DNA of 64,000 nucleotides from Patescibacteria group bacterium (GTDB taxonomy: Bacteria > Patescibacteriota > Microgenomatia > UBA8517), in assembly GCA_035291665.1 (NCBI GenBank), contig DATDRP010000006.1, forward strand, positions 74,961 through 138,960. The letters are read 5' to 3'. The notes beneath the pieces are model-generated. The model saw nothing but the letters and a program-made list of their open reading frames with translations, had not been told where the DNA came from and ran no database searches. Below, piece after piece: positions 4,946 to 27,956 of the stretch. Both the position numbers and the translations under genes were made by a program. Every line of letters begins with the position of its first letter. Within the stretch, counting starts at the first letter, position 1.

Positions 4946-5105
4946 TTGCCGTCCTCTTAAAATCCTAGTATCCTAATATCTTAATATCATTCTGAAATAT
5001 GGTTGGAAAATCCGATTACTACGACCCCGTACTGTTCTTACTTGCTCCCAAGTACTACGTGCTTGCGTCGCAAGAGCGAAAATACGGGGCAGGCATTTCT
5101 TGACT

Positions 5106-5996
5106 ATGACAACAAAAAGTGATTATTACGATATACTCGGAATTAATAAATCCGCTTCAGCGGATGAGATAAAAAAAGCTTACAGAAAGCAAGCTCTTGA
5201 ATGGCATCCGGACAGACATAAAGATGATAAAGAAGCCGCTGAGAAACGCTTCAAAGAAGTTAATGAGGCATATCAGGTACTTTCCGATCCGAAAAAGAGA
5301 TCGGCATATGATCAATTTGGCCATCAGGCATTTGCTCCCGGTGGAGGTTTTGGCGGACAGCCTGGTACCGGACCATTCGGACAGCAATCCGGTCAGTATG
5401 GTCCTTTTACATACACTTATACAACAAACGCAGGAGGTGGAGGAAATCCCTTCTCCGGATTTGACTTCGGAGACCCTTTTGATATTTTCGAAAGCTTTTT
5501 TGGTGGGGGAAGCGGGGGATTCAGGCGTGCCCAGCAGCTTCCCCGATACAGTATAAAAATAGATTTCATGGATTCGATAAACGGAGTCGAAAAGAATGTT
5601 GAAATCGGCGGCAAAAGAAGGAAAATTAAAATCCCTCCGGGAATTGATGAAGGTTCAAGGATAAAATTTGATGACTTTATTTTATCGGTCAATATTGCTC
5701 CGCATGAAGTTTTTGAGCGTGACGGAGCGGATATTTATATGCGCTACGAGATTCCGTTTTCACTGGCAACACTCGGCGGGGAAATAGAAATTCCAACTGT
5801 AGAGACGCTTGTGAAAGTCCGTATCCGCCCCGGAACCCAATCGGGTACGATGCTTCGCCTCAGGGGGAAAGGTGCACCCAATTTACATGGACATGGCAGA
5901 GGTGATCAATATGTGAGAGTGAATATTCTGATCCCCGACAAACTATCCCGAGAACAAAGATCTGCGGTTAATGACCTGAAGAGGGAGGGATTATGA
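5106..5996 (+). CDS. dnaJ: DnaJ-like J-protein lacking the zinc-finger domain (class B/CbpA-like)
   Basis: J-domain with HPD ([33 protein letters not shown]), a G/F-rich region and the C-terminal substrate-binding domains. No cysteine anywhere, so there is no CxxCxGxG repeat. The listed ORF starts at a TTG at 5100. The ATG at 5106 gives MTTKSDYY. Confidence 0.8.
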
Positions 5997-6198: not shown

Positions 6199-6200
6199 TG

Positions 6201-6908: not shown

Positions 6909-7886
6909 ATGGACGATTTGTTTTTAGCAATATTTCTTCTTACTCCTATTGCATGGATAGTTGCCATGATTCGACCGGGTTTATTTTCCAAAATCCCCAT
7001 TAAAAATTTAAACCGGAAGAAATTAACAGGAATTTTATTGGCGCTTTTTATTGTCTCGTTTGTGGGTTTTGGAGTTACTTCCAAACCGGTTGAGGAAAAT
7101 GTAAAAGAAGAAGTGCAAAGTTCATCAACCGAAGAACAGGACACAAACGTCTCTTCGGTTGAAGTTGAGGGCGGTGTTGCGGTTGTCAAAAGGGTTGTTG
7201 ACGGGGACACGATTGAGTTGGATAGCGGTGCCAAAGTCAGATATATCGGGATTGATACTCCTGAGTCGGTTGATCCGAAAAAACCGGTTGAGTGCTACGC
7301 TGAAGCAGCTTCAAAGAAAAATAGAGAATTAGTTGAGGGTAAAGAGGTCCGTCTTGAAAAAGATGTTTCGGAAACCGATCGCTACGGAAGGCTTTTACGG
7401 TATATTTGGATCAACGACAGTTTAATAAATGAAATTCTTGTTCGGGAAGGGTATGCCCGCTCAAGCACATATCCGCCGGACGTGAAATATCAGGAGAGGT
7501 TTCAGATTGCCGAAAAAGTTGCCAGGGAAGAAAAATTGGGTTTATGGGGAGAGGAGTGCGTGATAAAGCCAACTCCGACTTTGGTTCCGTCAGCCAAACC
7601 GACAGTTTATATTGCTCCCACAAAAGCTCCAACTACTTATTATGTTGCTCCGACATCTGTTCCTTACGTTGCACCCACCAACCTTCCGGCAGCAGTAAAT
7701 CAGCAAACCGGTGGCCAACCGGGAGGAGGAGGGACATCGGGGTCTTGGTCTTGCGACTGTTCAAAGACTTGCCCGAATATGTCATCCTGCGCAGAAGCGT
7801 ATTTTCAGTTGAATAACTGCGGATGTTCAATCCGCGATGGAGACGATGATGGAGTCCCTTGCGAATCTATCTGTTCGGGAGGATAA
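6909..7886 (+). CDS. Secreted or membrane-anchored thermonuclease (SNase-like) with a C-terminal Excalibur calcium-binding domain
   Basis: N-terminal hydrophobic segment(s). SNase core (VVDGDTIELDSGAKVRYIGIDTPE ... RYGRLLRYIW ... EKLGLWG). A P/T/A-rich linker with YVAPT repeats. A Cys-rich tail with DGDDDGVPCE (Excalibur DxDxDGxxCE). The start codon is uncertain. Confidence 0.75.
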   Translation: MDDLFLAIFLLTPIAWIVAMIRPGLFSKIPIKNLNRKKLTGILLALFIVSFVGFGVTSKPVEENVKEEVQSSSTEEQDTNVSSVEVEGGVAVVKRVVDGDTIELDSGAKVRYIGIDTPESVDPKKPVECYAEAASKKNRELVEGKEVRLEKDVSETDRYGRLLRYIWINDSLINEILVREGYARSSTYPPDVKYQERFQIAEKVAREEKLGLWGEECVIKPTPTLVPSAKPTVYIAPTKAPTTYYVAPTSVPYVAPTNLPAAVNQQTGGQPGGGGTSGSWSCDCSKTCPNMSSCAEAYFQLNNCGCSIRDGDDDGVPCESICSGG

Positions 7887-8529: not shown

Positions 8530-9828
8530 ATGCAGACACCAAGAACAGAATTTGCACAAGCCCTTCGGGCAATCGCAGCTGAGCGGGATCTTGATCCCGA
8601 GGTTATTATTGACACCATTAAGCAGGCAATTGTTGCTGCTTATAAAAGGGATGCCAAAGATCAAGGTGTCGAAACTGAAGAGTTTGAGTATGAAGTTGAG
8701 TTGAACCCCTCAAACGGTGAAGCAAAAGTTTTTTCGTGGCCACTGGAGAAACCCGAAGAGAAAAAAGATGTAACACCCCCCGGTTTCGGAAGGATAGCAG
8801 CCCAAACAGCAAAACAGGTAATTCATCAAAAGATCCGTGAGGCTGAAAAAGGGGCCATTATCAGTGAGTACAGCGAAAAAGTCGGCAGTCTTGTGACGGG
8901 AATGATACTTCGTTTCGAAGGCTCGGACGTTCGTGTTGATCTTGGAAAAACAGAAGGGATAATGCCGGCGTCGGAAAGAGTCCCGAACGAAAGATTAAAC
9001 GCCAATCAAAGGCTGACGTTTTTGCTGAAAGAAATCACAGAAACTCCGAAGGGAAAACTATTAACCCTCTCAAGGTCTGATCCCCAATTCGTTCAAAAAC
9101 TTTTTGCGAGAGAGGTTCCTGAGATCGGTTCGGGAAGTGTTGAAGTGAAAGGGATTGTCAGAGAACCGGGAGTAAGGTCAAAAATTGCCGTGTTTTCGAA
9201 TCAATCAGGAGTTGATCCGGTTGGCTCATGTGTCGGTCAAAAAGGTGTCCGGGTACAATCCGTCACAAATGAACTTGGCGGAGAGAGGGTTGATATTGTT
9301 CCTTTTAATATCGATTTGGTTGAATTTGTCAAAGCAGCACTTTCTCCTGCGGAAGGATTAAGCGTTTCGATCAGCAAAGACAAGACAGGTGCAATTGTTA
9401 AAGCTCCGGAGGACCAGCTTTCCCTGGCTATCGGACGTGAAGGACAGAATGCGCGTTTGGCATCAAAATTGACCGGAGTAAAAATTGATATTGAAGGTAT
9501 TCCCGGAGAGAAAACCCCAAAGTCTGTAGAAAAAGAGGAAGTAAAAGTGAAAACTGAAGAGAAGGCGGATTTGGTACCCTCGGATGAAAAACCGGCTGAA
9601 GAGGCTCCTCTTGCTGGAGAGGCTGATTTACCAACCCAAACACAGCCTATACAAGCTAACGATTCCGCTTCGAACAATTCCGGAAGCGCTCCGTCGGATG
9701 ATCAGGCAGGTAGCGTTACAAGTAATGACAATACGGCAGTCCCACAGGCTGAAGAAACCGCAGACACTAAAGAAGTATCCGTTGACGATTTGAAAAAGCA
9801 GGGAGACGATAAAAAAGACGAAGCTTAA
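8530..9828 (+). CDS. nusA: Transcription termination/antitermination factor NusA
   Basis: N-terminal domain, S1 and two KH domains. Acidic, low-complexity C-terminal tail. No AR1/AR2. Confidence 0.9.
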   Translation: MQTPRTEFAQALRAIAAERDLDPEVIIDTIKQAIVAAYKRDAKDQGVETEEFEYEVELNPSNGEAKVFSWPLEKPEEKKDVTPPGFGRIAAQTAKQVIHQKIREAEKGAIISEYSEKVGSLVTGMILRFEGSDVRVDLGKTEGIMPASERVPNERLNANQRLTFLLKEITETPKGKLLTLSRSDPQFVQKLFAREVPEIGSGSVEVKGIVREPGVRSKIAVFSNQSGVDPVGSCVGQKGVRVQSVTNELGGERVDIVPFNIDLVEFVKAALSPAEGLSVSISKDKTGAIVKAPEDQLSLAIGREGQNARLASKLTGVKIDIEGIPGEKTPKSVEKEEVKVKTEEKADLVPSDEKPAEEAPLAGEADLPTQTQPIQANDSASNNSGSAPSDDQAGSVTSNDNTAVPQAEETADTKEVSVDDLKKQGDDKKDEA

Positions 9829-9864: not shown

Positions 9865-11274
9865 ATGATGGAAACAAGACCTCCGGTTGTAACAGTCTTA
9901 GGCCATGTTGATCACGGCAAGACGACGCTTCTTGATGCTCTAAGAAAAACTTCTGTTGCCGAAAAAGAAGCCGGCGGAATAACGCAAAGCATTGGTTCAT
10001 CTGTTGTTACAACGGCAGACGGTAAGAAAATAACTTTTATTGATACACCCGGGCACGCTGCTTTCACGAAAATGCGGAGCCGTGGAGCGAAAGCTGCCGA
10101 CATCGCAATACTGATAGTTGCTGCAGATGATGGCGTTAAACCACAAACAAAAGAAGCCCTAAAAATAATTTTGGGAGAGCATATCCCATATATAGTAGTT
10201 CTCACAAAGAAAGATTTACCTAATGCTGACACAGAGAAATGTCTTGGTGAACTTGAGAAAGAGGGCATTGCTTTCGAAGGAAGGGGTGGCGATGTACCGT
10301 ATCTGGCAGTTTCTGCAAAAAAAGGTGAGGGGTTGAAAGAACTTCTGGAATTGATAGTCTTGGTGGCCGATGTCACCGGAATTAATGCTGATAAACAGGG
10401 AGCACTTCAGGGATTTGTTGTTGAAACAAGAAAAGACAAACGCGGACCTTTGGCATCTTTGGTAATTACAAACGGAACAATGCGAATTGGAGACGATATA
10501 TTGTGCGACCAAAAAGTGAGTAGGGTGAGGGGGATATTTAATTTTCTTGAAAAGTCGGTAAAAGAAGTTTTTCCCGGAGAACCCGCACTCGTTATTGGTT
10601 TTACTGAACCTCCGGCAGTCGGGTCACAAATTCATTCCATATCGGATAGTTCGGTTGAGGTAAAAAAAGATATTCCGATCGATGTGAGAGGTGAAGAAAC
10701 AAAATTAGGTAGTATTCCCAAACTCAGGCTTGTAGTTAAAACCTTGACCACCGGGAGTTTGGAAGCAATTACCCAGGGTTTGCCGGACGGGGTTGAAGTG
10801 GTTTCAAAAGGTGTAGGAGACGTTATTGATGCTGATGTTTTTTCCTGCAAAGCCTCCAGAAACTGTCGGATATTTGTATTCGAAGCTAAAGTTCCGAATG
10901 ATGTTTCAAAACTAGCTGAAATGGAAGGAGTAGAAATTGAAAGCTTTAATATAATCTACAAACTGTTCGAAAGAGTCGATGAAATTATAAAATCCGGAGA
11001 AGACGAGGTGATGGGAAGTGCTGAAATTATTGCAATATTCCCCTACGAGAAGAAAAGAGTTGCAGGCTGTAAAGTAACCAAGGGTGTAATTGAGAAGAAA
11101 TATCCCTTAAAAATTATGAAAAAAGGAAAAAGTATTGGTAGAACGAAAATCGTTTCAATGAAAAAAGAGAAAAAAGATATTATCTCCTCTGTTGCCGGTG
11201 AAGAATTCGGGGCAATCTTTGAGCCTTATCTTGATTTTGAGAAAGGCGATGTGTTAATATCCATACGCAAATAG
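9865..11274 (+). CDS. infB: Translation initiation factor IF-2 (short form, 469 aa)
   Basis: G domain ([31 protein letters not shown]) followed by domain II and the C domains. It lacks the long N-terminal region. Confidence 0.9.
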   Translation: MMETRPPVVTVLGHVDHGKTTLLDALRKTSVAEKEAGGITQSIGSSVVTTADGKKITFIDTPGHAAFTKMRSRGAKAADIAILIVAADDGVKPQTKEALKIILGEHIPYIVVLTKKDLPNADTEKCLGELEKEGIAFEGRGGDVPYLAVSAKKGEGLKELLELIVLVADVTGINADKQGALQGFVVETRKDKRGPLASLVITNGTMRIGDDILCDQKVSRVRGIFNFLEKSVKEVFPGEPALVIGFTEPPAVGSQIHSISDSSVEVKKDIPIDVRGEETKLGSIPKLRLVVKTLTTGSLEAITQGLPDGVEVVSKGVGDVIDADVFSCKASRNCRIFVFEAKVPNDVSKLAEMEGVEIESFNIIYKLFERVDEIIKSGEDEVMGSAEIIAIFPYEKKRVAGCKVTKGVIEKKYPLKIMKKGKSIGRTKIVSMKKEKKDIISSVAGEEFGAIFEPYLDFEKGDVLISIRK

Positions 11275-11368: not shown

Positions 11369-12439
11369 ATGGACAATTCTTTCAAATCCGTAATTGATTC
11401 AGCAAATTCAATATTGATCCTTCTGCCGACAAAACCTTACTTTGATCAGGTCGCAGCAGGGCTTTCTCTTTATTTATCGCTTCTGCATTCGGGAAAAAGT
11501 GTATCCGTATATTCCCCCGCTCCCGCAACAGTGGAATTTAACCGCCTGATCGGGGTTGATAAAATCACAAATGAGCTCGGAAACAAGAATCTCGTCATTT
11601 CATTTCCGAACTATAATTCCTCCGATATCGAAAGAGTCAGCTATGATGTCGAGGAAGGAATATCTGTTTTGACAATCATTCCAAAATCTGATGCCGTTGC
11701 ACCTAAAAAAGATGATGTTGAGTTTTCCTACACCGGGGTATCCTCCGACACGGTTATCTTGATCGGTGGGGCAAACGAGACGCATTTTCCGAAAATTGCG
11801 GATAAGGATTTGGCAAATGCTAAAATTTACCACATTGGCACCCGCCCCTTGAGTGCCGACCCTGCAAAAAATATAATTTCTTTTTCTCAAGCTACCCCGT
11901 CGGTTTCCGAGATTGTATTTATTTTGATTAATGAATCGGCTTTAACTCTTGAACCGGATATTGCGACCAATCTTTTGATGGGGATCGAAGATGCAACCGA
12001 TAATTATCAAAGTCCCAATGTCCTTCCCGAAACATTTGAAATTACGGCAGCTTTGATTCGAAGCGGTGGCAGAAGATATGCAGGAAAAGGCCTTGATACC
12101 GGAGGTTTCCCGGATGGTGCAATTCCCCGAACCAGCGTGACACCACCTCCAACCATGCCAAGCGGCTTTGATTTCAACGATAACCCCGTTGTTGATCAAA
12201 CAATGGATGAGACGGATTTCGGTCCAACTCCTCCCATATTTGATAAACCGGGTCCTTTGTCACAGGCAACTCCTTCTGCTCAGAAAAATATTCAAAAACA
12301 AGTTTCGGATAAAAACCCCGATGAAAAAGAGGAAGATTCTTTTATGGCTGAAGAAAAACCGGATGAAACCGAAGAAATAGAAAATCCCCCATCAGACTGG
12401 CTCCAGCCGAAAATCTACCGCGGAACTTCAATGAGTTGA
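11369..12439 (+). CDS. DHH/DHHA1-like (NrnA-like) protein with degenerate catalytic motifs and a P/E-rich tail
   Basis: The scaffold PYFDQVAAGLSLYLSL aligns with the DHH motif-I region HxxPDGDAIGSALAL, but only one Asp is retained. No DHH triad is recognisable. GGANETH stands where the DHHA1 GGGH motif would be. Confidence 0.35.
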   Translation: MDNSFKSVIDSANSILILLPTKPYFDQVAAGLSLYLSLLHSGKSVSVYSPAPATVEFNRLIGVDKITNELGNKNLVISFPNYNSSDIERVSYDVEEGISVLTIIPKSDAVAPKKDDVEFSYTGVSSDTVILIGGANETHFPKIADKDLANAKIYHIGTRPLSADPAKNIISFSQATPSVSEIVFILINESALTLEPDIATNLLMGIEDATDNYQSPNVLPETFEITAALIRSGGRRYAGKGLDTGGFPDGAIPRTSVTPPPTMPSGFDFNDNPVVDQTMDETDFGPTPPIFDKPGPLSQATPSAQKNIQKQVSDKNPDEKEEDSFMAEEKPDETEEIENPPSDWLQPKIYRGTSMS

Positions 12440-13355: not shown

Positions 13356-15638
13356 ATGAAAAAAATTGAAAAAACATTTGAGTTAGCGGGTAAGAAATTA
13401 ACCCTTACCACCGGTCATGTTGCCGCGCAGGCAACCGGAGCGGTTATGGCCCAATACGGCGAGACTGTTGTCTTGGCAACAGTTGTCTCGGCACCCTTAA
13501 AGCAACAGTTGGATTATTTTCCTCTCAGCGTTGAATATCAGGAAAAACTTTACGCCGGCGGAAGAATCAAAGGCAGCCGTTGGGTGAAAAGGGAGGGACG
13601 TCCTACCGATGAGGAAATATTATCCGGAAGACTTATTGACCGTTCGATAAGACCGCTTTTCCCCAAGGAGTATAAGAAGGATGTTCAGGTTATTTTGACA
13701 GTTTTATCCGTTGATATGGAAAATTCTCCGGCAATAACAGCCGCGATTGCAGTTTCGGCAGCTTTATCCCTGTCGTCAATTCCCTGGATGGGACCTGTCA
13801 GTATTTTACGGGTTGGTCTTGATGGAGATAAATACGTAATTAACCCAACAAACGGACAAATGGAAGCGTCTCCCTTGGATTTGATTGTTTCTTCAACAAA
13901 AGATGCTGTAGTAATGATCGAGGCGGGTGGAAACGAAGTCCCCGAGGAAAAAATCATTGCCGGTATAACAGAAGCTAAAAAGGAAGGCGATAAATTAATT
14001 AAGTTTATTTCCGACTTTGCCGATTCGGTCGGTACGAAAAAAGAAGTCCTTCCCAAAGAAGAAAAAAACGAGTCAGTTATTAAAAAAGTAAAAAAACTTG
14101 CTGACGATACCCTGAAAGATTTGGTTTCCAAAATGGCAACCAAAGAGGCTGATTATGCCACATTCGACGAAGCCAAAAAGGCTGTTATGGCTGAGTTTGA
14201 GGGTGATGAGGTTTTACTTGCAGGTGAGGTTTTTGAGAAGTTATATAAAGATGAAGTTCGGAAACTCATTCTTTCGGGTAAACGCGCTGACGGAAGGAAA
14301 CACGATGAACTAAGAGAACTCTCGGCTATGGTATCTGTTCTTCCCAGAACTCACGGTTCAGCTATTTTCAGCCGGGGACAAACACAAGCTTTATCGATTG
14401 CAACAATTGGTGCACCTTCACTGGGGCAAACGATTGAATCTGCAGAAGGTGAGGAAACAAAACGCTATATGCACCATTACTCAATGCCGCCGTTTTCAAC
14501 CGGAGAAACCGGAAGAATCGGATCTCCATCCAGAAGAGAGATCGGGCATGGCGCTCTTGCTGAAAGAGCTCTTCTTCCTGTTATTCCATCAGAGGATGAG
14601 TTTCCGTACGCCATAAGAGTTGCGACTGAAGTTCTATCATCGAACGGATCAACTTCAATGGCATCAGCTTGTGGATCGTCTCTTTCACTGATGGATGCAG
14701 GTGTTCCGATAAAGTCTCCGGTTGGTGGAATAGCAATGGGAGTTGTTATCGAAGACGAGAAAAATTATGCAATTTTGACAGACATTGTTGGTATAGAGGA
14801 CGGAAATGGTGATATGGATTTTAAGGTAGCCGGGACTAAGGATGGAATTACAGCACTTCAGCTTGATGTAAAAACATTAAAATTGTCAGTTGATATTTTG
14901 GAAAAAGCAATCGCTCAAGCTAAAACAGCAAGAGAGAAAATTTTAGCAGTCATGACAAAGGCGATTTCTGCTCCTCGGGAAAAAGTTTCAAAATATGCTC
15001 CAAAGATTAAGATTATAAAGATTGACGTAAGTAAAATTGGGGAATTAATCGGTCCGGGTGGAAAGATTATCAAAGGTTTGATCGCATCAACAGGCTCACA
15101 AATAGACGTTGATGACGATGGAAAGGTTTTCATTTCAGCAGTTGATGAGGCAAGCGTTGATAAGGCAGTTGAAGCTGTAAACAATCTTTTCAGAGAGCCG
15201 GTTGCAGGCGAGGTTTATGAGGGTGTTGTTCGGAGAATCCAGCCATTCGGTGCTTTTATTGAAATTTTTCCCGGAAAAGAAGGAATGGTCCACGTTTCCG
15301 ATATGAGTGAGGATTATGTTTCGAATCCTTCGGATATTGTTAAAATCGACGACGTTGTCAAAGTCCGCGTCAAAGAGATTGATGAACTGGGTAGGGTAAA
15401 CCTTTCGATGCTTTTGGATGGTGACAAACCAAAAGCACCAAGGCGTGAAAGTGGAGGTTTCGAAAGACGTTATGATGACCGTGGTTCCAGGGGTGGCGGA
15501 ATGTCAAGAGACCGGCGTCCCAGAAGAGATAATTACTCAAGAAATGACAGACGCGATAGATCCGGTGGCAGATCCGGTGGTCCCCACTTCCCTACCAGCA
15601 GGTTTATTGAAGAAAGCAGAAAGAAGTACGACAGATAA
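13356..15638 (+). CDS. pnp: Polynucleotide phosphorylase
   Basis: Two RNase PH domains, then KH and S1 domains, then an R/G/D-rich C-terminal tail. Follows rpsO as in the canonical operon. Confidence 0.95.
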   Translation: MKKIEKTFELAGKKLTLTTGHVAAQATGAVMAQYGETVVLATVVSAPLKQQLDYFPLSVEYQEKLYAGGRIKGSRWVKREGRPTDEEILSGRLIDRSIRPLFPKEYKKDVQVILTVLSVDMENSPAITAAIAVSAALSLSSIPWMGPVSILRVGLDGDKYVINPTNGQMEASPLDLIVSSTKDAVVMIEAGGNEVPEEKIIAGITEAKKEGDKLIKFISDFADSVGTKKEVLPKEEKNESVIKKVKKLADDTLKDLVSKMATKEADYATFDEAKKAVMAEFEGDEVLLAGEVFEKLYKDEVRKLILSGKRADGRKHDELRELSAMVSVLPRTHGSAIFSRGQTQALSIATIGAPSLGQTIESAEGEETKRYMHHYSMPPFSTGETGRIGSPSRREIGHGALAERALLPVIPSEDEFPYAIRVATEVLSSNGSTSMASACGSSLSLMDAGVPIKSPVGGIAMGVVIEDEKNYAILTDIVGIEDGNGDMDFKVAGTKDGITALQLDVKTLKLSVDILEKAIAQAKTAREKILAVMTKAISAPREKVSKYAPKIKIIKIDVSKIGELIGPGGKIIKGLIASTGSQIDVDDDGKVFISAVDEASVDKAVEAVNNLFREPVAGEVYEGVVRRIQPFGAFIEIFPGKEGMVHVSDMSEDYVSNPSDIVKIDDVVKVRVKEIDELGRVNLSMLLDGDKPKAPRRESGGFERRYDDRGSRGGGMSRDRRPRRDNYSRNDRRDRSGGRSGGPHFPTSRFIEESRKKYDR

Positions 15639-15898: not shown

Positions 15899-16951
15899 AT
15901 GGTAAGTGATGCTTCACAGGAACAACTTAAGATTATTGAGGACAAGGTCAGAAATTCAAAAATTCCGGACGATTTGAGAGCGCGGATAGATCTTCGTTTG
16001 CAGCAATTGGAGCGGCTCATATTATCACCTTCTTTTTTACCGGAACTGGACAGAATCTCCCGGTACGTTGATTGGATTACAACAATCCCCTGGTATGCAA
16101 GGACTGAAGACAATTTGGACTTGACTCACGCTCAAAAAATACTGGATAAAAATCATCATGGTCTGGGAGAAATTAAGGATAGAATCCTCGAATATATTTC
16201 AATAATGAAACTTAAGCAGGAAAAGGGTGAGGGTGAAGATATTATGCGGGCGCCGGCTCTTTGTTTTGTGGGATTAGTAGGAACCGGAAAAACTACAATT
16301 GCTCTTTCGATTGCTGAAGCGCTTGGGAGAAAGTTTGTCAGAATTCCATTTGGCGGTATGGAAAACCCCTTTGATTTGAGAGGTCAGTCAAAAGTTCAAC
16401 CTGAAGCAGAACCGGGAAAAATCGTCAAAGCACTACGTTTGTCTCGAGCAAAAAATCCTGTAATTCTACTCGATGAAATCGACCGTGTTACCGATATGGG
16501 ACGCGCATCGATCATGGGAGTTTTGGTTGAGCTTTTGGATCCGGGTCAAAATCACGCTTATACCGACTATTATATTGACTATCCGGTTGACCTGTCGGAA
16601 GTATTATTTGTGGCAACCGCCAATAATACACACCATATAGCAACCGCTGTTTTGGACAGACTTGAGCCAATTTCAATGCCTTCTTATTCAGATGCGGAAA
16701 AAATTACAATAGGTAAGGATTATATGTTACCCGTAATTTTGAAGGAATCAGGTCTTCGTGAGGGGGATCTGGTGATTAACGACGATGTCTGGCCGCAAAT
16801 TGTCAGACCGCTAGGTTTTGACGCCGGGACGCGTACACTTGAACGGACAATTAAAGGAGTTGCCAGAAAAGTTGCCCGTTTAATTGTTGAAGGAAAGGGA
16901 GATAAATTTATTTTAACCCCCCAGAACATAAAAGAATTCCTACCCAGGTAA
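15899..16951 (+). CDS. Lon-derived AAA+ ATPase lacking both the LON N-domain and the S16 peptidase domain
   Basis: Aligns with Lon residues ~240-585. It has Walker A GLVGTGKTT, Walker B ILLDEIDR, sensor-1 ATANN, and arginines in DRLEP and GTRTLERTI. The ORF stops where the Lon protease domain would begin, and no protease domain is found downstream in any frame. Confidence 0.7.
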   Translation: MVSDASQEQLKIIEDKVRNSKIPDDLRARIDLRLQQLERLILSPSFLPELDRISRYVDWITTIPWYARTEDNLDLTHAQKILDKNHHGLGEIKDRILEYISIMKLKQEKGEGEDIMRAPALCFVGLVGTGKTTIALSIAEALGRKFVRIPFGGMENPFDLRGQSKVQPEAEPGKIVKALRLSRAKNPVILLDEIDRVTDMGRASIMGVLVELLDPGQNHAYTDYYIDYPVDLSEVLFVATANNTHHIATAVLDRLEPISMPSYSDAEKITIGKDYMLPVILKESGLREGDLVINDDVWPQIVRPLGFDAGTRTLERTIKGVARKVARLIVEGKGDKFILTPQNIKEFLPR

Positions 16952-17172: not shown

Positions 17173-17811
17173 ATGGGAAAACAAGAACTTCTCAATCAAT
17201 TAAAGAAAAAAATGTCAGATGATGTTACGCTACCGCTTCGGAAAGGTTCAACCCAACTTGTATTCGGAGATGGAAATCCGGACGCAAAGATCTTGTTCAT
17301 CGGCGAGGGGCCGGGTTATTGGGAAGATGTTAAAGGAATTCCCTTTGTCGGGAATGCAGGCGCCCTTTTGAACCAGATGCTCATGATGGTAAAAGTACCA
17401 AGAAAGGATGTTTTCATCACAAACGTTATTCATCATCGGGCACCGCAAAACCGCGATCCGCTTCCGGAGGAAATAAAGGCATATCAACCGTATCTTGACG
17501 AAATAATAAAAGTTATAGACCCGAAAGTTATTGTCACCTTGGGAAGATTCTCGATGGCTAAGTTTTTACCGGGTGTATTCATATCCAGTGTTCATGGTAG
17601 GGAGAAAAAAGTTCAAATTGATGGTAAAAATCGAATTATACTCCCGATGTACCATCCGGCTGCGGCGCTTCGCAATGGTGATGTAAAGCTAAAATTCAAG
17701 ATGGATTTTGAAAAATTGCCTGATATATTAAAGGAAGCGGACAAAATTGAAGAGCAGGGGGTTGTTAAGGAAAAGGACGAGGCAAAAGCTGAACAAATGA
17801 ACTTAATATAA
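17173..17811 (+). CDS. Uracil-DNA glycosylase, family 4-like, lacking all Fe-S cysteine ligands
   Basis: GEGPGYWEDVKGIPFVGNAG matches family-4 motif A. MYHPAAALRN matches motif B. There is no cysteine in the protein. Confidence 0.75.
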   Translation: MGKQELLNQLKKKMSDDVTLPLRKGSTQLVFGDGNPDAKILFIGEGPGYWEDVKGIPFVGNAGALLNQMLMMVKVPRKDVFITNVIHHRAPQNRDPLPEEIKAYQPYLDEIIKVIDPKVIVTLGRFSMAKFLPGVFISSVHGREKKVQIDGKNRIILPMYHPAAALRNGDVKLKFKMDFEKLPDILKEADKIEEQGVVKEKDEAKAEQMNLI

Positions 17812-17839: not shown

Positions 17840-19483
17840 ATGTCTTTACGATTTATTGCACTTTCAGGAACAATCAGTGTTACTGAAAATTTATACATTT
17901 ATGAAGCCGAAGGCAAAATGATGATTGTCGATTGCGGCGTGGGATTTCCCGATCTTGAGATGCACGGAGTTGATTTGGTCATACCGGATTTTTCGTATAT
18001 TTTGAAAAATAAAGATAAACTTTCGGGAATTTTGGTTTCCCAGGGCCACGAAGACCACATTGGGGCGCTTCCATTCCTGCTTCGCGAACTGTCAGCTCCG
18101 ATTTATGCAGCGCCATTAGTAACGGAGTTTTTAAAAGATAAGTTTGATGAATATGGAGTAAGAGGAGCCATCATTAACACTTTTAATCCGGATAACGACA
18201 AGTTCGCTATAGGTCCTTTTACAATATATCCTTTTAGGGTTACACATTCGGTACCGGATTCCTGTGGATTTGCAATTGACACACCCGAAGGGAGAATTTT
18301 TCATGTCCCTGAACATAAAATCGATCAAAACCCTGTCGGAGGGATGGGATTTGCTATAGAAAGGGCTAAGGAACTCTCGAATGGCAACAACCTTTTCCTG
18401 GCTTCCGACTGTCTCGGTTCAAATAAACCCGGGTTCACTCCGAACGAACGCCCTATCGAAGATAATATGTTTAAAGTGGCATCAAATGCCCCGCACGCTA
18501 TATTTGCCACTGCAATATCGTCAAACATCGGCCGTTTTCAGCAGATGGTGAATGTTGCACAAAAACTTGGCAGAAAAGTGGTTTTTATCGGAAGGTCGGT
18601 TCAGAAAAAGACTGAGATCGCATTCAATCTTGGACATCTGAAATATCCCAAAGGTTTGGTAGTTGAACTACGTGATGCGTACAATCTTCCCCGAAATAAG
18701 GTTTTCTATATCGTTTCCGGATGTTACGGACAAGTTGGCAGTTCTTTATATAGGATTGCGACTGGTGCTTATGAAAAGCTTGAAATTCAGGAAGGAGATA
18801 TGATGATCTTTTCAGCTGACCCGGCTCCGCCTTATTCCAAAGAAAGTGAGGATTTTGTTATTGACCAACTTATCGATTTAGGAGTGGATGTTCATTATTA
18901 CGATCTGAATGAAGGACTTTATGTATCCGGTCACGGGAGTCAGGAAGATATTACGGAGCTTTTTAGGATTGTAAATCCGAAGTATTTTATACCGATTGGA
19001 GGTTCAGTTCGCTTTATGCATGCGTATAAAAAACTGGTAGGAAAGTTCGGCAGGGACGAGCGCTTGGTTTTTACCCTCAAGCCCGGGGAAAATGTTTACT
19101 TTGAAAACGGTAATGCAAGGCGCGGGGAAAAGGTTGCCTCGAAAGAAATTCTGGTTCACGGTTTAGGTATCGGAGACATCGGAAAAGTAGTTCTTGGCGA
19201 TCGGGCAATATTAGGTAACGAGGGTTTCGTTGTTGTAATTCTAAAGTTTTCAAAGAACGGAAGACTTGTTGACTTACCTGAAATAATCTCAAGAGGTTTT
19301 GTATATGAAAAAATAGAAAAAGCACTTTTGAAAAAAGCTGTAATGGGCATCAAAAGACAAATTGATAAAAAGGCTGGCGATAAAAAACAGCTTCAGCAAA
19401 TTTCGAGGGAATATCTGGAGAGATTCTTCTACCAAAAAACCGGCCGGCGTCCCATGGTTCTTCCTGTCGCAGTTGAAATGTAA
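17840..19483 (+). CDS. rnj: Ribonuclease J (metallo-beta-lactamase / beta-CASP)
   Basis: MBL fold with the GHEDHIGALPFLL motif, a beta-CASP region and a C-terminal domain. 547 aa. The first His of HxHxDH reads Gln (SQGHEDH). Confidence 0.85.
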   Translation: MSLRFIALSGTISVTENLYIYEAEGKMMIVDCGVGFPDLEMHGVDLVIPDFSYILKNKDKLSGILVSQGHEDHIGALPFLLRELSAPIYAAPLVTEFLKDKFDEYGVRGAIINTFNPDNDKFAIGPFTIYPFRVTHSVPDSCGFAIDTPEGRIFHVPEHKIDQNPVGGMGFAIERAKELSNGNNLFLASDCLGSNKPGFTPNERPIEDNMFKVASNAPHAIFATAISSNIGRFQQMVNVAQKLGRKVVFIGRSVQKKTEIAFNLGHLKYPKGLVVELRDAYNLPRNKVFYIVSGCYGQVGSSLYRIATGAYEKLEIQEGDMMIFSADPAPPYSKESEDFVIDQLIDLGVDVHYYDLNEGLYVSGHGSQEDITELFRIVNPKYFIPIGGSVRFMHAYKKLVGKFGRDERLVFTLKPGENVYFENGNARRGEKVASKEILVHGLGIGDIGKVVLGDRAILGNEGFVVVILKFSKNGRLVDLPEIISRGFVYEKIEKALLKKAVMGIKRQIDKKAGDKKQLQQISREYLERFFYQKTGRRPMVLPVAVEM

Positions 19484-19601: not shown

Positions 19602-21743
19602 ATGTCCAAAAAACACCGCCGTTCCAAAAAAACAAAATCCAAAAAAGCATTTCAGCTAAAACTAAAACCGGCAACACTTTATTCAATTGCACAGGTATTT
19701 TTTTATGTTTTAGCAGGACTTACTGTTTTATCATTTTGGCGAAGGGGGTTGGTCCTTATTTATATCAATGATTGGATTGTTAATCTTTTCTCCTGGACAG
19801 CAATATTTTTACCTTTTATTTTTATAACATTCGGCCTTTTGATTTCAAAACTTCGATTACCAATTACCCAACCCAACGTGATGGTTGGCGCACTTCTATT
19901 TTTTGTTTCTTTAATGTCATTTTCGAAAGCAGGAATAATAGGCCAGAGTTTTTTTGACGGGCTTTCCGAGCTAATTACCAATCCCGGAGCATATATTGTT
20001 TTTTTTGGAATGATGATCGTTGGCGGGGTGATTATGTTTAATACATCTCTCGATCAGTTATTTTTATTTCTGGCTGATGTTTATAAAAAATATGTTATAC
20101 GCGGGAGCACCAGGGTAGGCAAGGCTGGGAGTTTCAAAAGTCCTTTAAAAAAGGAACTTAAGGTTGTCGGTGATTCCCCGCTTTCAAATAAACCGCTTTC
20201 AATAAACGAAGCAAAACCGACAAGCTCAAAAGATAATAAGGAATTTTTCGAGAAATCTCCGGATGAGCAGCAATTGGTCAGCAACATCCCGGGTGAGGAA
20301 GCAGTCTGGAAATATCCTCCGATTTCGATTTTTCAGGATACTTCTGGCGGAAAAGCGGACCGCGGGGATATTAAAGGCAACGCGGCCACCATCGAGCAGA
20401 CTCTTGAGTCGTTTGGGATTGCCGCACGGGTAGTTGAAGTAAATCTGGGACCGGCAGTTACGCAGTATGCATTAGAGGTTGCTCTGGGAACAAAACTATC
20501 AAAAATAACAGCACTGGAGCGCGATTTGGCGCTGGCGCTGGCTGCTCCTACCGGAACCATTAGGATAGAAGCACCAATCCCCGGAAGGTCGCTTGTCGGA
20601 ATAGAGCTCCCCAATAAAGCACCTGAGTTTGTTCCGATCAGAAAGATGCTTGAGTCCGATGTGATGAAGGAACAGAAAAGTAAACTTGCAGTATCTTTGG
20701 GATTGGATGTTTCAGGTAAACCGGTTGTCGCAACACTCGCAAAGATGCCGCACGCTCTGGTTGCAGGACAAACGGGTTCAGGTAAAAGTATTTGTTTGAA
20801 TACTTTTTTGGCAACACTTTTATTTCGGGCTTCGCCATCGGAACTTAAGCTTATTTTGGTTGATCCGAAAAGAGTCGAAATGGTTAACTATAACGGCATT
20901 CCGCATCTTTTGTCTCCGGTAATTATTGAACCGGACAAGGTTTTATCGGCGCTTAAATGGTTAATGGGTGAAATGGACCGGAGATATAAGCTTTTTTCTC
21001 AGGCGGGAGTCAGGAATATTGATTCGTATAACGAAATGTCCGGATTTCAGGCTCTTCCGTATATTGTCTTGGTTATCGATGAGCTTGCCGATATTATGCT
21101 TTTTTCACCGGTTGAAGTCGAAGATGCAATAACAAGAATTGCGCAGATGAGCCGTGCGACGGGAATCCATATGATTTTGGCTACTCAGCGTCCGAGTGTT
21201 GATATCATTACGGGTCTTATCAAGGCTAATATCCCGTGTAGAATTGCATTTGCGGTTTCCTCACAGGTGGATTCAAGGGTAGTTCTTGATACTCAAGGGG
21301 CGGAGAAGCTTCTCGGAAAAGGCGATATGTTATATCTTCCTCCTGAACAGGCAAAACCGATTCGTATTCAAGGGGCCTACACAACCGATAAGGATTTGAA
21401 TTCACTTATTTCCTATATCAAAAATCAGGGAGTTCAACCTCAATACACCGAAGAGGTAACATCGATGACAAAAAGAGGAAGCTCAGTCGTCCCGGGATAC
21501 GATGGAGATTTAGATGAGCTTTTCAAGGAAGCGGTAGAAGCTGTATGTCAATACGATAGGGCTTCAGCGTCACTTCTTCAAAGAAGGCTTTCCGTAGGTT
21601 ATGCAAGAGCTGCGCGAATTGTTGATCAACTGGAAGCAGCAGGAGTGATCGGACCCGCTGACGGATCAAAACCACGTGAGGTATTAATTCGAAGCGCGGA
21701 GGAGTTTTTCGCCCAATCCGCCTCAGAACAATCTCAAGAGTAG
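19602..21743 (+). CDS. ftsK: DNA translocase FtsK/SpoIIIE
   Basis: N-terminal TM segments, then a linker, then the motor domain (AGQTGSGKS Walker A, VLVIDELADIM Walker B) and a C-terminal gamma wHTH. Confidence 0.85.
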   Translation: MSKKHRRSKKTKSKKAFQLKLKPATLYSIAQVFFYVLAGLTVLSFWRRGLVLIYINDWIVNLFSWTAIFLPFIFITFGLLISKLRLPITQPNVMVGALLFFVSLMSFSKAGIIGQSFFDGLSELITNPGAYIVFFGMMIVGGVIMFNTSLDQLFLFLADVYKKYVIRGSTRVGKAGSFKSPLKKELKVVGDSPLSNKPLSINEAKPTSSKDNKEFFEKSPDEQQLVSNIPGEEAVWKYPPISIFQDTSGGKADRGDIKGNAATIEQTLESFGIAARVVEVNLGPAVTQYALEVALGTKLSKITALERDLALALAAPTGTIRIEAPIPGRSLVGIELPNKAPEFVPIRKMLESDVMKEQKSKLAVSLGLDVSGKPVVATLAKMPHALVAGQTGSGKSICLNTFLATLLFRASPSELKLILVDPKRVEMVNYNGIPHLLSPVIIEPDKVLSALKWLMGEMDRRYKLFSQAGVRNIDSYNEMSGFQALPYIVLVIDELADIMLFSPVEVEDAITRIAQMSRATGIHMILATQRPSVDIITGLIKANIPCRIAFAVSSQVDSRVVLDTQGAEKLLGKGDMLYLPPEQAKPIRIQGAYTTDKDLNSLISYIKNQGVQPQYTEEVTSMTKRGSSVVPGYDGDLDELFKEAVEAVCQYDRASASLLQRRLSVGYARAARIVDQLEAAGVIGPADGSKPREVLIRSAEEFFAQSASEQSQE

Positions 21744-23808: not shown

Positions 23809-25629
23809 ATGAAAGCATCAGATGTCAGGAAAAAATATATTGAGTTTTTCAAAAATCGCGGACATATAGAAATTGAACCGGCTCCACTGGTTTTGGAGAA
23901 TGACCCGACAACGCTTTTTACATCCGCCGGCATGCAGCCTCTTGTACCGTATCTCACCGGTGATCCGTATCCGGGTGGCGCCAGAAGACTTGTAAATTCC
24001 CAACCCTCAATCCGCTTGGGAGATATTGAAGAGGTTGGCGACAACCGCCATACAACCTTTTTTGAAATGCTTGGGAACTGGAGTTTGGGGGATTATTTTA
24101 AAAAAGAACAGCTGCCCTGGATTTTTGAATTTTTTACGGCTGAATTGGGACTTCCCAAGGAAAAGCTTTGGGTTTCGGTTTTTGAAGGAGATGATAAAGT
24201 TCCAAAAGACACCGAGTCTTTTGAAATTTGGGAAAAACTTGGGATTCCTCAGGAAAAAATTATTTATTATCCGGCCAAGAAAAATTGGTGGTCGATGACG
24301 GGAACACCATCTGATATGCAGGTGGGTCATATCGGGGGACCCGATTCAGAGGTCTTTTATGATTTCGGGGAAGATCGTAAATTTCATGAGAATTCACAAT
24401 TTAAAAACGACACCTGCCACCCCAACTGCGACTGCGGAAGGTTTTTGGAAATCGGAAACTCAGTCTTTATTCAGTATAAAAAAGTATCTGATACGGATCT
24501 TGAAGAGCTGCCTCAAAAAAATGTTGATTTTGGAGGCGGGCTTGAAAGAATTACTGCTGCGGTAAATAACACGCCGGACATATTTAATATTGATGTGTTT
24601 AGACCAGCAATAGATAGATTGGAAAAATATTTTGGGAAGGAGTATGGAAAGGAAAAAGAAATTGATGAGATGTACAGAGTAGTTGTTGAACACATCAGAG
24701 CTTCAATTTTTATATTAAATGCAGGTGTTACACCTAGTAACAAACAACAGGGGTATGTTTTAAGAAGATTACTTCGACGCGCTGCTGCAAAGGTATTTAT
24801 TAAAGACAAAACCTTCGATAGTAAAGAATTCAAGTCATTAGCTGAAATAATAATTAGCCAAAATTCAGGAATTATTAAAATTACAAACAAGAAAACCATA
24901 GAAGATCAAATTGTTTATGAGATCGGAAAATTCAGATCAACTATAGAAAGGGGAATGAATGAGGTTAAAAAAGTTGAGAAAATTACGGGACAAACAATGT
25001 TTGATTTGTTCCAATCCTATGGTTTTCCGCCAGAAATTACATTGGAAATTGCTGTTAAAGATAACATAGCAATTGAAGATAATGTGGGAGTAAATTTTGA
25101 AAAGCAAATGGAAGAGCATAAAGAAAAATCCAGAACTTCTTCTGCAGGGGTTTTTAAGGGTGGACTTGCGGATCACTCTGATGAAGTAATAAGATACCAT
25201 ACAGCAACGCATCTTCTTTTGGCATCTCTTCGGAAGGTTCTTGGTGACACTGTTGTCCAAAAAGGCCAAAACATAACGAAAGTTCGCAGCCGTTTTGATT
25301 TTCCGGGGAATGAAAAGTTAGAAGGTGCTCAACTGAAAAATGTGGAAGATATGATTAATGACGTGGTTACAAAAGACCTTCCGGTAAAATCCGTTGTTAT
25401 GTCCAAAGATGAAGCTTTGAAAACCGGTGCAATTCATGCCTTCAATGAAAAGTACGCAGATACGGTCAAGATATACTATGTTGGAGATTCTTTGGACCAA
25501 GCATTCAGTAAGGAATTCTGCGGCGGACCGCATGTTTCCCACACAGGTGAGATCGGGCATGTTAAGATTAGTAAACAGGAAAAGATCGGTGCGGGACTCG
25601 TGAGAGTGTATTTAGTATTAAATAACTAA
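23809..25629 (+). CDS. alaS: Alanine--tRNA ligase, truncated (catalytic, tRNA-recognition and editing domains; no C-Ala domain)
   Basis: Class II core (FTSAGMQPLVPYL), editing-domain motifs HTATHLL and CGGPHV. The ORF ends at 606 aa. Confidence 0.9.
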   Translation: MKASDVRKKYIEFFKNRGHIEIEPAPLVLENDPTTLFTSAGMQPLVPYLTGDPYPGGARRLVNSQPSIRLGDIEEVGDNRHTTFFEMLGNWSLGDYFKKEQLPWIFEFFTAELGLPKEKLWVSVFEGDDKVPKDTESFEIWEKLGIPQEKIIYYPAKKNWWSMTGTPSDMQVGHIGGPDSEVFYDFGEDRKFHENSQFKNDTCHPNCDCGRFLEIGNSVFIQYKKVSDTDLEELPQKNVDFGGGLERITAAVNNTPDIFNIDVFRPAIDRLEKYFGKEYGKEKEIDEMYRVVVEHIRASIFILNAGVTPSNKQQGYVLRRLLRRAAAKVFIKDKTFDSKEFKSLAEIIISQNSGIIKITNKKTIEDQIVYEIGKFRSTIERGMNEVKKVEKITGQTMFDLFQSYGFPPEITLEIAVKDNIAIEDNVGVNFEKQMEEHKEKSRTSSAGVFKGGLADHSDEVIRYHTATHLLLASLRKVLGDTVVQKGQNITKVRSRFDFPGNEKLEGAQLKNVEDMINDVVTKDLPVKSVVMSKDEALKTGAIHAFNEKYADTVKIYYVGDSLDQAFSKEFCGGPHVSHTGEIGHVKISKQEKIGAGLVRVYLVLNN

Positions 25630-25712: not shown

Positions 25713-27956
25713 ATGGATTTGAAAAGTATCTTGCCCAAAAAGAAGGAGGACAACGAGTACTTCTGGTCTGTTGTGATAGAACCCGATTGGGTGCAGGCAG
25801 GAGTCTGGAAAATAGAAGAAAAGAAAGTTGTCGTAGTTGCTAAGAGTAATCCTATTGCCTGGAAACTTGATGATGAACTCATTTCCGCAAGCGATGCCGC
25901 TCTATCTTCCGTCATTCAGGAACTGCCTGAAGATTTCACTGAACCTCAAAAAACAGTTTTCGGAGTCAGTTCTTCATGGGTCGATGACAGTCAAATAAAA
26001 GAAGAATATTTGGTGAAAATCAAGAAGATTTGTCAGGAATTATCTCTCACGCCGGTTGGTTTTGTTGTTGTATCTGAAGCAGTCGCTCATTATTTTAAAA
26101 ACGAAGAAGGCGGACCTTTAAATACACTTATCATAGGTGTTTCGTCGGGTAATCTTGAACTTGCCCTATATCAGAACGGAAAATTAATCGGAACCGCCCA
26201 GGTTGCCAGAAGCGTAAGCATATCGGACGATGTTGCTGAAGGGTTGTCGCGGTTCTCTTCAAAAGATGCACTTCCATCCAGATTTATTTTATTCAACGGG
26301 AGGGAGGGTGATCTTGAAGATGCAAAACAGGAGCTGATTAAAGCCAATTGGGAGGATTATGAGAAAATCAAGTTTTTGCACACTCCAAAAATAGAATTTG
26401 TATCTTCCGATGAGAAAGTCATGGCGGTTTCGCTGGCTGGTGGCGCTGAGATGTCTGAGGTGGAAGGAGTAGTAGAAATTGAAGCACCGGAAAAAGCTAA
26501 AGTTGTCCAAACAATAGAGGAGCCTGTTGCATCTCTTCCGCCTGATGAAGAGATTGCAAATATTACGGAAGCCGACGACGACCTTCATCCGGAAGATTTT
26601 GGTTTTGAAGTAAATGAAATGGCGCAAAATAAGCCGAAACCCGATTTTTCCCAGAAGACTGAAGCGGCAGGTGAGCAAATAGAAGAAAAAATTCATGCAC
26701 AGCCGGAACCTCCAAAGCAAATGCCCATTCCGGTTAAGAAAAAATTTAACTTTTCAGGGTTAACAAAAATCTTCTCAATTTTTAATTTGAGAAATCTTAA
26801 ATTCCCGGGTATAAAGACTGAAGGTACAAAACCTCTTTTAATTGGTTTTATTGCGATTATTTTATTGATTATCGGGGGGGGTCTTTTTTGGTGGTTTTTT
26901 CCTAAAGCGGAAGTGACAATATATATTTCACCGAAAAGTACTGAAGAAAAGTTTGATATCACGATAGATCCGGCAGTAAATAGCGCTGATTTTGAAAAGG
27001 GTATCATCCCGGGAAAAGTTGTTGAAAGGACTCTGACTCTAAATAAATCAAAAGGAGCAACGGGGAGTAAAACCGTTGGCGATAAAGCAACAGGTGAGAT
27101 TACTATTTACCGTGTCGGTACCGAGTTAACCCTGAGTGCTTCGACGTTAGTGAAAGGACCACAGGGATTGAATTTTACTTTGAACGATGAAGTTAGTATT
27201 GCCAGTGGTAGCGCCATAAACCAAGGGACCACGAAAGCCAATGTTGCCGCCGAAAAAATCGGAGCTGACTATAATCTGGCATCCGGACAAACTTTCAGTA
27301 TTGGCAATTATTCAACCTCCGACATGGAAGCGACGAATGAAAATGCATTTTCCGGAGGATCCAGCCGTGAGGTAAGTGCCGTATCTGAAGCCGACAAAAC
27401 CAGCCTCCTGAAAGATTTGCAAAACGAATTGGAAGAGAGCCTTAAAGAAGAAGTTGGAAAATCGATTTCAGATGATGAGATTGTTATAGACGATTCTTAT
27501 GAATTTACAATTGAAGAGGAAGATTACAATCATAAGGTGGGTGACGAGGCGGACACATTGACGCTCGATTTGACGATTACCGCTAAAGCTGTGGCTGTTA
27601 AAAACGAGCAAATAATTTCAGCTGCAAGAAAAGCATTGGAAGGAAGCGTTTCCGAAGGATTTACCTTAAAGGATGACCAGATAGAACCGAGTTTTTCTTT
27701 CAAAGAAGGTGAGGGGGGTGTTTACAATGTTGAGGTTTTTGCAAAAGCCGGACTTCTGCCCAAGATTGACACGGATCTTATTTTGGAAAATATTACCGGA
27801 AGGTTTCCGGATGTAGCCAGGGAATATTTAACAAAAAATGTTCCGGGTTTTGTAAGGGCTGAAATAGTTTTTAAGAACTTCAAATTCCCCGGTAAGCTTG
27901 GCTCTCTGCCAAGGGTCTCAAAAAATATTACAATCGAGGTCAGCGCGGAAAAGTAG
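25713..27956 (+). CDS. Membrane protein: N-terminal actin-fold (PilM/FtsA-like) cytoplasmic domain, one TM helix, large extracytoplasmic domain
   Basis: The N-terminal ~240 aa show PilM/FtsA-like strand patterns (VVIEPDWVQAGVWKIEEKKVVVVAKS ... LTPVGFVVVSEAVAHYF ... TLIIGVSSGNLELALYQNGKLIG). TM helix LLIGFIAIILLIIGGGLFWWFF. The ~350-aa acidic, beta-rich C-terminal domain is unassigned. Confidence 0.4.
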   Translation: MDLKSILPKKKEDNEYFWSVVIEPDWVQAGVWKIEEKKVVVVAKSNPIAWKLDDELISASDAALSSVIQELPEDFTEPQKTVFGVSSSWVDDSQIKEEYLVKIKKICQELSLTPVGFVVVSEAVAHYFKNEEGGPLNTLIIGVSSGNLELALYQNGKLIGTAQVARSVSISDDVAEGLSRFSSKDALPSRFILFNGREGDLEDAKQELIKANWEDYEKIKFLHTPKIEFVSSDEKVMAVSLAGGAEMSEVEGVVEIEAPEKAKVVQTIEEPVASLPPDEEIANITEADDDLHPEDFGFEVNEMAQNKPKPDFSQKTEAAGEQIEEKIHAQPEPPKQMPIPVKKKFNFSGLTKIFSIFNLRNLKFPGIKTEGTKPLLIGFIAIILLIIGGGLFWWFFPKAEVTIYISPKSTEEKFDITIDPAVNSADFEKGIIPGKVVERTLTLNKSKGATGSKTVGDKATGEITIYRVGTELTLSASTLVKGPQGLNFTLNDEVSIASGSAINQGTTKANVAAEKIGADYNLASGQTFSIGNYSTSDMEATNENAFSGGSSREVSAVSEADKTSLLKDLQNELEESLKEEVGKSISDDEIVIDDSYEFTIEEEDYNHKVGDEADTLTLDLTITAKAVAVKNEQIISAARKALEGSVSEGFTLKDDQIEPSFSFKEGEGGVYNVEVFAKAGLLPKIDTDLILENITGRFPDVAREYLTKNVPGFVRAEIVFKNFKFPGKLGSLPRVSKNITIEVSAEK

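Follow-up and report, generated by a model that had tools for sequence, protein, structure and literature searches.

Results

A family-4-type uracil-DNA glycosylase gene

We analysed a 64,000-nucleotide stretch of the genome of a Patescibacteria group bacterium (GenBank assembly GCA_035291665.1, contig DATDRP010000006.1, positions 74,961 to 138,960), referred to below as the window. The gene under study encodes a uracil-DNA glycosylase (UDG) and occupies window positions 17173..17811 of the forward strand, the strand of all the window features given with coordinates below. It is a complete open reading frame (ORF), running from ATG to TAA, and its product of 212 amino acids contains no cysteine. 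An identical protein, encoded on a 606-kb contig, is present in public databases under the label 'uracil-DNA glycosylase [Patescibacteria group bacterium]', and the genomes closest to the locus belong to Candidatus Woesebacteria. An earlier note, made from the sequence alone, had likened the protein over its whole length to the family-4 UDGs, in which four cysteines hold a [4Fe-4S] cluster. It had offered two explanations for the missing cysteines: a cluster-free variant of family 4, or membership of a related UDG family that has no cluster.

Comparison with family models bore out the likeness. The protein matched the Pfam UDG superfamily at 1e-30 and scored 170.9 bits against the NCBIfam model 'UDG, family 4' (TIGR00758), above the curated cut-off of 125.3. 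It fell below the cut-offs of the UdgX model TIGR03914 (100.1 bits versus 189.95) and of the archaeal equivalog NF040953 (178 bits versus 250). A HMMER search of Protein Data Bank (PDB) chains found the Sulfolobus tokodaii UDG at 1.7e-35, Thermus thermophilus UDGA at 7.8e-35 and Thermotoga maritima TM0511 at 1.2e-32; the family-4 chains as a whole spanned E values of 1.7e-35 to 1.5e-32. UdgX chains matched at about 1e-16, and the family-5 enzyme TthUDGB (2d3y) only at 1.8e-4 over 105 residues. The alignment to TM0511 extends over residues 3-187 of the query and 4-189 of the chain, and those to T. thermophilus UDGA and S. tokodaii UDG are consistent with it.

The predicted fold points the same way. 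An AlphaFold2 (AF2) model built on 59 homologues had a mean predicted local distance difference test score (pLDDT) of 88.6, with values of 94-98 around residues 11-30 and 81-90 and values below 50 for the last 16 residues (197-212) only. Its top Foldseek matches were the family-4 structures 4zby, 1ui1 and 1l9g, at E ~1e-19, and UdgX followed at E ~1e-15. The earlier note had proposed a structural comparison with T. thermophilus UDGA, and the model does overlay that enzyme (1ui1/1ui0): across it, 4zby and 1l9g, the template modelling (TM) scores were 0.78-0.89, with root-mean-square deviations of 1.6-2.0 Å over ~185 columns at 37-42% identity.

The published definitions of family 4 rest on motif A, GE(A/G)PG, and motif B, HPAAVL (PMC10359453). 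In the window protein, motif A is GEGPG (residues 44-48, 17302..17316), which has the family-4 form, and motif B is HPAAALR (residues 161-167, 17653..17673), which fits HP[AS]xxLR. Between them lie PFVG (residues 57-60, 17341..17352) and ITN (residues 82-84, 17416..17424). The family-5 motifs GLAPA and HPSPLN are not matched. In an alignment with 59 homologues of 59-76% identity, 50 columns are invariant and include all the motif residues: Gly44, Glu45, Pro47 and Gly48 of motif A (Gly46 nearly so), Pro57, Phe58 and Gly60 of PFVG, and Asn84 of ITN. This degree of invariance shows that the gene is under purifying selection. We take Phe58 to be the homologue of the phenylalanine against which the flipped uracil stacks in family-4 structures, and Asn84 would correspond to the uracil-recognising asparagine of family-4 enzymes. 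By homology, uracil would be flipped into a pocket formed by motif A, Phe58, Asn84 and His161...Arg167 of motif B, and the N-glycosidic bond would be hydrolysed as it is by the UDGs of Thermus, Thermotoga and Sulfolobus.

All four cluster ligands are replaced in place

The literature describes UDG families 4 and 5, and UdgX as well, as carriers of a [4Fe-4S] cluster (PMC10359453, PMC5295032, PMC8307549, PMC4787834). HMMER pairwise alignments and two MAFFT alignments place the four cluster cysteines of TM0511, T. thermophilus UDGA and S. tokodaii UDG opposite Asp17, Leu20, His88 and Tyr104 of the window protein, which thus lacks the four-cysteine set. The earlier note had listed Ser/Asp, His and Tyr at the ligand positions; Asp17, His88 and Tyr104 are correct, the second position is Leu20, and Ser15 does not fall on a ligand position. 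The former CxxC of ligands 1 and 2 now reads D17-V-T-L20 (17221..17232). Ligands 3 and 4 were the ends of the 'Fe-S cluster loop', whose equivalent is H88-RAPQNRDPLPEEIKA-Y104 (17434..17484). No insertion or deletion separates ligands 1 and 2 or ligands 3 and 4, the latter two being 16 residues apart in both kinds of protein. The loop HRAPQNRDPLPEEIKAY has kept the length that it has in cluster-bearing enzymes, and its Arg89, Pro91, Asn93, Arg94, Asp95 and Pro96 are invariant.

The earlier note had also stressed that the protein contains no cysteine at all. This is true, but we rejected it as evidence: cysteine makes up 0.44% of the residues of the window's proteins, so that a protein of 212 residues would lack it by chance with P ~0.40, and its absence alone is uninformative. 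What chance does not explain is the replacement of the ligand positions, which carry cysteine at all four sites in 78 of the 150 nearest 50%-identity cluster representatives. Four cysteine ligands are the hallmark of the characterised family-4 members and not a motif-based criterion for classification. By motif and hidden Markov model (HMM) definitions, then, the window protein belongs to family 4 without having the family's biochemical hallmark.

The cluster-free state is standard in a large part of the Microgenomates-type bacteria

The earlier note had called for a survey of homologues from the candidate phyla radiation (CPR). Among the 120 closest homologues (~59-100% identity), none has a cysteine at any ligand site and 107 contain no cysteine at all. 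Asp17 is conserved in 119 and Leu20 in all 120, position 88 is His, Tyr or Phe, and position 104 is Tyr or Phe. In the wider set of 150 representatives, 17 proteins besides the 78 with four cysteines retain three (mostly with the ligand pattern Cys-Cys-His-Cys, CCHC, or with CCSC), 10 retain one and 30 retain none; the proteins with one or none vary in pattern (DLHY, DLYF, DLRY, ALAY, NCYF, STYF).

A scan of species-representative genomes with motif patterns of the clade, patterns that match CCHC forms too, returned at least 580 loci. We scored ligands and gene order in the best 80 of these species-level loci, which come from Woese-, Blackburn-, Curtiss-, Davies- and Shapirobacteria and other Patescibacteria. 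Sixty-eight, from Woese-, Blackburn-, Curtiss- and Daviesbacteria, are ligand-free and 12 are CCHC; the patterns are DLFF (27), DLHY (25), CCHC (12), DLYF (10) and a few others. Far from being special to the window genome, the cluster-free state is thus standard for this orthologue in much of the Microgenomates-type CPR bacteria.

Ligand-free and CCHC loci share the gene order PNPase, Lon-like AAA, UDG, RNase J, FtsK. They therefore encode orthologues at one chromosomal position, and ligand loss happened at that position. The CCHC orthologues occur in Shapirobacteria-like genomes (loci L052, L059, L065-L067, L069, L070, L072, L076 and L078-L080, the UDG lying at about 6001-6640 in most of them). 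Their histidine stands exactly at the position of His88 of the window protein, and the resulting set of three cysteines and one histidine is that of UdgX. Since UdgX, with histidine at the ligand-3 position, still binds its cluster (PMC4787834), the CCHC orthologues are probably still Fe-S proteins, and they may represent an evolutionary intermediate between the four-cysteine and the ligand-free forms.

In the wider family, bacterial and archaeal, the four-cysteine form predominates, which identifies the cluster-free state as derived. In a neighbour-joining (NJ) tree computed without the ligand columns, the ligand-free proteins of the Microgenomates type group together, and the CCHC group adjoins them. 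The loss would have been inherited vertically within these bacteria, and a Cys-Cys-His-Cys stage, which would survive in the syntenic orthologues, probably preceded it.

A ligand-free family-4 UDG was also found in Candidatus Wildermuthbacteria (Parcubacteria), with the pattern DLRY (L081-L083, gene at 8001-8597). Its neighbourhood is different, with genes for an S8 peptidase, a fatty-acid desaturase and DsbB/DsbA-like proteins, and it has no QxxL tail. The cluster-free state is therefore not confined to the Microgenomates-type clade.

Side chains may fill the former cluster site

In canonical enzymes, the cluster ties the end of helix 1, through the CxxC, to both ends of a loop that contacts DNA. 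In the ligand-free proteins, positions 88 and 104 are tightly coupled. Among the 120 closest homologues, the pairs are His-Tyr (55), Tyr-Phe (50), Phe-Phe (13), Tyr-Tyr (1) and Phe-Tyr (1), and His-Phe does not occur; across 69 leaves of the NJ tree the coupling is perfect, with ~9 parsimony switches at each site. Direct contact between the two side chains predicts such coupling. Cluster loss is accompanied by bulkier neighbours (Val/Ile14 to Met, Ala/Val/Thr29 to Leu). Gln111, present in 76 of 78 four-cysteine (CCCC) and 18 of 18 CCHC proteins, is Ile, Glu or Met in ligand-free proteins, in which Lys87 is likewise replaced by His or Arg.

The retained loop, the coupled pair, the bulkier residues 14 and 29 and the changes at 111 and 87 together suggest that a hydrophobic and aromatic plug, alongside the conserved Asp17, is likely to have taken the place of the cluster. 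The former cavity would be filled by Asp17, Leu20 and the interacting pair 88/104, which is His-Tyr in the window protein and Tyr-Phe or Phe-Phe in orthologues. The bulkier Met14 and Leu29 would lie near the site, and position 111, a nearly invariant Gln in cluster-bearing enzymes, would have been freed from constraint. As the loop has kept its sequence and length, it probably still binds DNA; a role of the loop in uracil recognition is on record for the Archaeoglobus fulgidus enzyme (Engstrom et al. 2012, as cited in PMC5295032). In archaeal family-4 UDGs, Cys-to-Ser mutants lost only ~40% of activity, and the cluster is regarded as structural (PMC5295032). Such a modest loss implies that the cluster is not catalytic.

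Alternative readings of the replaced ligands

It is conceivable, if quite improbable, that the protein no longer turns over as a glycosylase and either binds or crosslinks uracil-DNA in the manner of UdgX or is an inactive relic. UdgX is structurally close, it shares with the window protein a histidine at ligand position 3 ('NAVKH' in the Mycobacterium smegmatis protein, 6AIL and others, versus 'NVIHH' here), and a mutation of its C27 that disrupted the cluster inactivated it (PMC4787834). However, UdgX keeps three cysteines, has GEQPG as motif A and the KRRIH R-loop, and crosslinks to DNA. The window protein has GEGPG, falls under the cut-off of the UdgX model and lacks the 9-residue insertion with KRRIH and His109: its alignment to 8iir leaves two gaps, of 4 and 5 residues, at FKFT and GGKRR of UdgX. 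On these grounds we rejected a UdgX-like crosslinker. Against a relic stands the invariance of all family-4 catalytic residues over a clade of more than 500 species-level genomes.

A second alternative, which we regard as very improbable, is that a mononuclear Zn or Fe site formed by Asp17, His88 (with or without His87) and Tyr104 has replaced the cluster. Asp, His and Tyr can all serve as metal ligands and stand at three of the four sites once held by the cysteines, and His88 always occurs with Tyr104. The fourth position, however, is an invariant leucine, and about half of the orthologues carry Tyr-Phe or Phe-Phe at 88/104 and could not bind metal there. These states interleave with His-Tyr on the tree, which looks like functional equivalence of a hydrogen-bonded or aromatic packing pair. 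Leu20 and the Phe-Phe orthologues led us to reject the metal site as the principal explanation.

The earlier note's other suggestion, that the protein merely resembles family 4 and belongs to a UDG family that naturally has no cluster (2, 3, 6 or a new one), draws support only from the missing ligands and is scarcely credible, because all best sequence and fold matches are to family 4, the N-terminal helix (residues 3-16) and strand are present and aligned to TM0511 from residue 3 whereas families 2 and 6 lack this N-terminal section of the long UDGs (two helices and one strand; PMC5295032), and syntenic orthologues with three cysteines and a histidine grade, with slightly more distant four-cysteine relatives, continuously into the clade. 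The note had treated placement in family 5 or 6 as the outcome that would speak against family 4, on the premise that both naturally have no cluster. The premise was wrong, as family 5 carries a [4Fe-4S] cluster (PMC10359453, PMC5295032, PMC8307549), and the weak match to 2d3y reported above argues against placement in family 5 in any case; families 5, 2 and 6 were all rejected.

A C-terminal tail that may bind the sliding clamp

The protein extends beyond the fold that it shares with characterised enzymes. Residues 190-207 (17740..17793) form a variable linker of low pLDDT that is predicted to be disordered, and the last five residues are QMNLI (17794..17808), a candidate binding motif for the beta sliding clamp. 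The mean identity to homologues is 67% in the core, 16% in the linker and 78% in the QMNLI tail. TM0511 has no tail extension of this kind, since its chain of 192 residues is aligned up to residue 189.

The bacterial beta-clamp-binding consensus is QL[SD]LF, and Escherichia coli MutS carries QMSLL, which QMNLI resembles. Following a flexible linker, QMNLI fits the pattern of a clamp-binding pentapeptide (Qxx[LM]-hydrophobic). The ending Q[MILV]x[LFM][IVLFM]-COOH closes 117 of the 120 close homologues. It also closes 47 of 149 family representatives, against 0.19 expected from the frequency of the pattern inside the proteins, and these include many four-cysteine bacterial proteins that end in QLSLF or QLTLF. 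Within the window, the UDG is the only ORF of at least 90 amino acids with such an ending. From the motif, we suggest that the tail is probably a tether between the enzyme and the beta sliding clamp.

Tethered UDGs are known from other domains of life: an archaeal family-4 UDG and human UNG2 are joined to PCNA by a short terminal peptide on a flexible linker, as proposed here. An interaction of the Pyrococcus furiosus UDG with PCNA is cited in PMC5295032. The motif of the window protein differs from theirs in being of the bacterial beta-clamp type and not a PCNA-interacting protein (PIP) box. Among bacterial base-excision-repair enzymes, only Nei2 and XthA are named as partners of the clamp in a review from 2022 (PMC9690074). 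We found no bacterial UDG-clamp interaction in the literature searched, which covers older work only in part.

Genomic setting

The UDG gene lies in a co-directional block of housekeeping genes for PNPase (13356..15638), a Lon-like AAA+ ATPase (15899..16951), the UDG, RNase J (17840..19483, starting 29 bp past the UDG stop codon), FtsK (19602..21743) and an HTH_25 protein. The Lon-like ATPase, of 350 amino acids, has AAA and Lon_lid domains and is without the Lon protease and N-terminal LON domains. It lies directly upstream of the UDG, a position kept in 61 of the 80 related loci. Promoter-like and terminator-like sites around the UDG gene were no commoner than in shuffled sequence.

The rest of the window, whose G+C content is 40%, contains hrcA-grpE-dnaK-dnaJ, nusA, infB, alaS, rpoB/rpoC, fusA and ribosomal protein genes; dnaN is absent from the window. 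The earlier note had speculatively connected a cluster-free variant with an anaerobic or Fe-limited symbiont lifestyle. Cysteine-based motifs of the zinc type are kept in other window proteins; RpoC and adenylate kinase, for example, have CxxC pairs. A regular-expression search of the window and the 80 loci for ferredoxin and radical-SAM cysteine motifs returned spurious antisense ORFs only.

Several other genes of the window stood out. DnaJ (5100..5996), in hrcA-grpE-dnaK-dnaJ, has a J domain and a C-terminal domain, contains no cysteine and gives no match to the CxxCxGxG zinc finger; a class-B-like J-protein thus occupies the housekeeping DnaJ position. A protein with a staphylococcal-nuclease (SNase) domain (6909..7886) has 8 cysteines in residues 282-322 of its C-terminal tail, by far the most cysteine-dense stretch of the window. 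IF-2 (9865..11274) is short, at only 469 amino acids. AlaRS (23809..25629) is also short (606 amino acids), and only its catalytic and SAD domains were detected, the SAD match ending at residue 601. The ORF at 11369..12439 (356 amino acids) has no Pfam match, and that at 25713..27956 (747 amino acids) has only a weak Baseplate_J-like match (E = 4.5e-5).

Discussion

The replacement of the cluster ligands is real, conserved and clade-wide, and it is an instance of a known evolutionary theme, in which repair glycosylases lose a structural Fe-S cluster. Of the two explanations that the earlier note had offered, the cluster-free variant of family 4 is the one that the HMM score and the closest solved structures uphold. 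We consider it probable that the window gene encodes a functional family-4-type (UdgA-like) UDG that has lost the typical [4Fe-4S] cluster, that side chains have refilled the cavity, that this state is derived, and that the enzyme is putatively tethered to the clamp. With UdgA (1UI0; TM0511, 1L9G/1VK2; S. tokodaii, 4ZBX) it shares the fold, motifs A and B, the Phe and Asn of the uracil pocket and an RPPxNRxP loop of equal length; it differs in the four replaced cysteines, an altered second shell and the additional linker and QMNLI tail.

Several points weigh against this interpretation. We infer the contacts among residues 14, 17, 20, 29, 88 and 104 from the homology of the cluster site and from covariation; activity, metal content and clamp binding are predictions for every member of the clade. 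AF2 often gives confident folds of the cofactor-bound kind regardless of whether the cofactor is needed, so that the high pLDDT at the former ligand residues is no proof of cluster independence. Packing by bulky residues had also been proposed for clusterless MutY, and when clusterless MutYX was crystallised, its structure revealed that models of this simple kind can err in detail (PMC12631127). Finally, NJ bootstraps (200 and 100 replicates) recovered the core of the ligand-free clade (mean best-match Jaccard index 0.91) and gave no support for its strict monophyly, found in 4.5% of bootstraps, or for a sister relation of the CCHC group. We therefore make no claim that the cluster was lost only once or that His88 descends from the CCHC form.

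The closest precedents are the clusterless MutY/MutYX and EndoIII enzymes, in which a non-catalytic [4Fe-4S] cluster was lost in particular lineages and activity was retained; bulky residues or remodelling of the local structure have been put forward as compensation (PMC12631127). MutY and EndoIII belong to the helix-hairpin-helix superfamily, unlike the window protein with its alpha/beta fold. In MutYX, moreover, helices were remodelled and a new domain was gained, whereas the UDG shows no insertions or deletions around the former site. Cluster loss, already known from these glycosylases, is apparently undescribed for family-4 UDGs: we found no description of a cluster-free member in the literature searched, of which the older part was only partly covered, so that a prior mention is possible.

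A broader proposal, for and against which we give equal weight, is that a Microgenomates-type class of CPR bacteria, comprising hundreds of species, uses a [4Fe-4S]-free family-4 UDG marked by an indel-free Asp/Leu plus coupled aromatic plug, a sister intermediate with three cysteines and a histidine, and a QMxL[IV] clamp tether. If this is true, the series CCCC, CCHC, DLHY and DLFF would be open to biochemical comparison. The ligand-free, three-cysteine and four-cysteine orthologues would allow the view that the cluster is purely structural to be examined, along with what its absence costs, be it thermostability, search efficiency or sensitivity to oxidants. An annotation rule that assigns '4Fe-4S binding' to every type-4 UDG would mislabel the cluster-free clade. 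A genuine clamp-binding tail would be the first link between a bacterial UDG and the clamp, and it would bring uracil excision in bacteria to the replication fork, where archaea and humans also have it.

It has long been asked of DNA glycosylases generally whether the cluster serves structure, DNA binding or redox signalling among repair proteins. Here, a large and vertically inherited clade would have removed the cluster yet kept the anchored loop and every catalytic residue. Such a clade would amount to a natural experiment, so far undescribed, on the reason for Fe-S clusters in DNA glycosylases, with a parallel in clusterless MutY.

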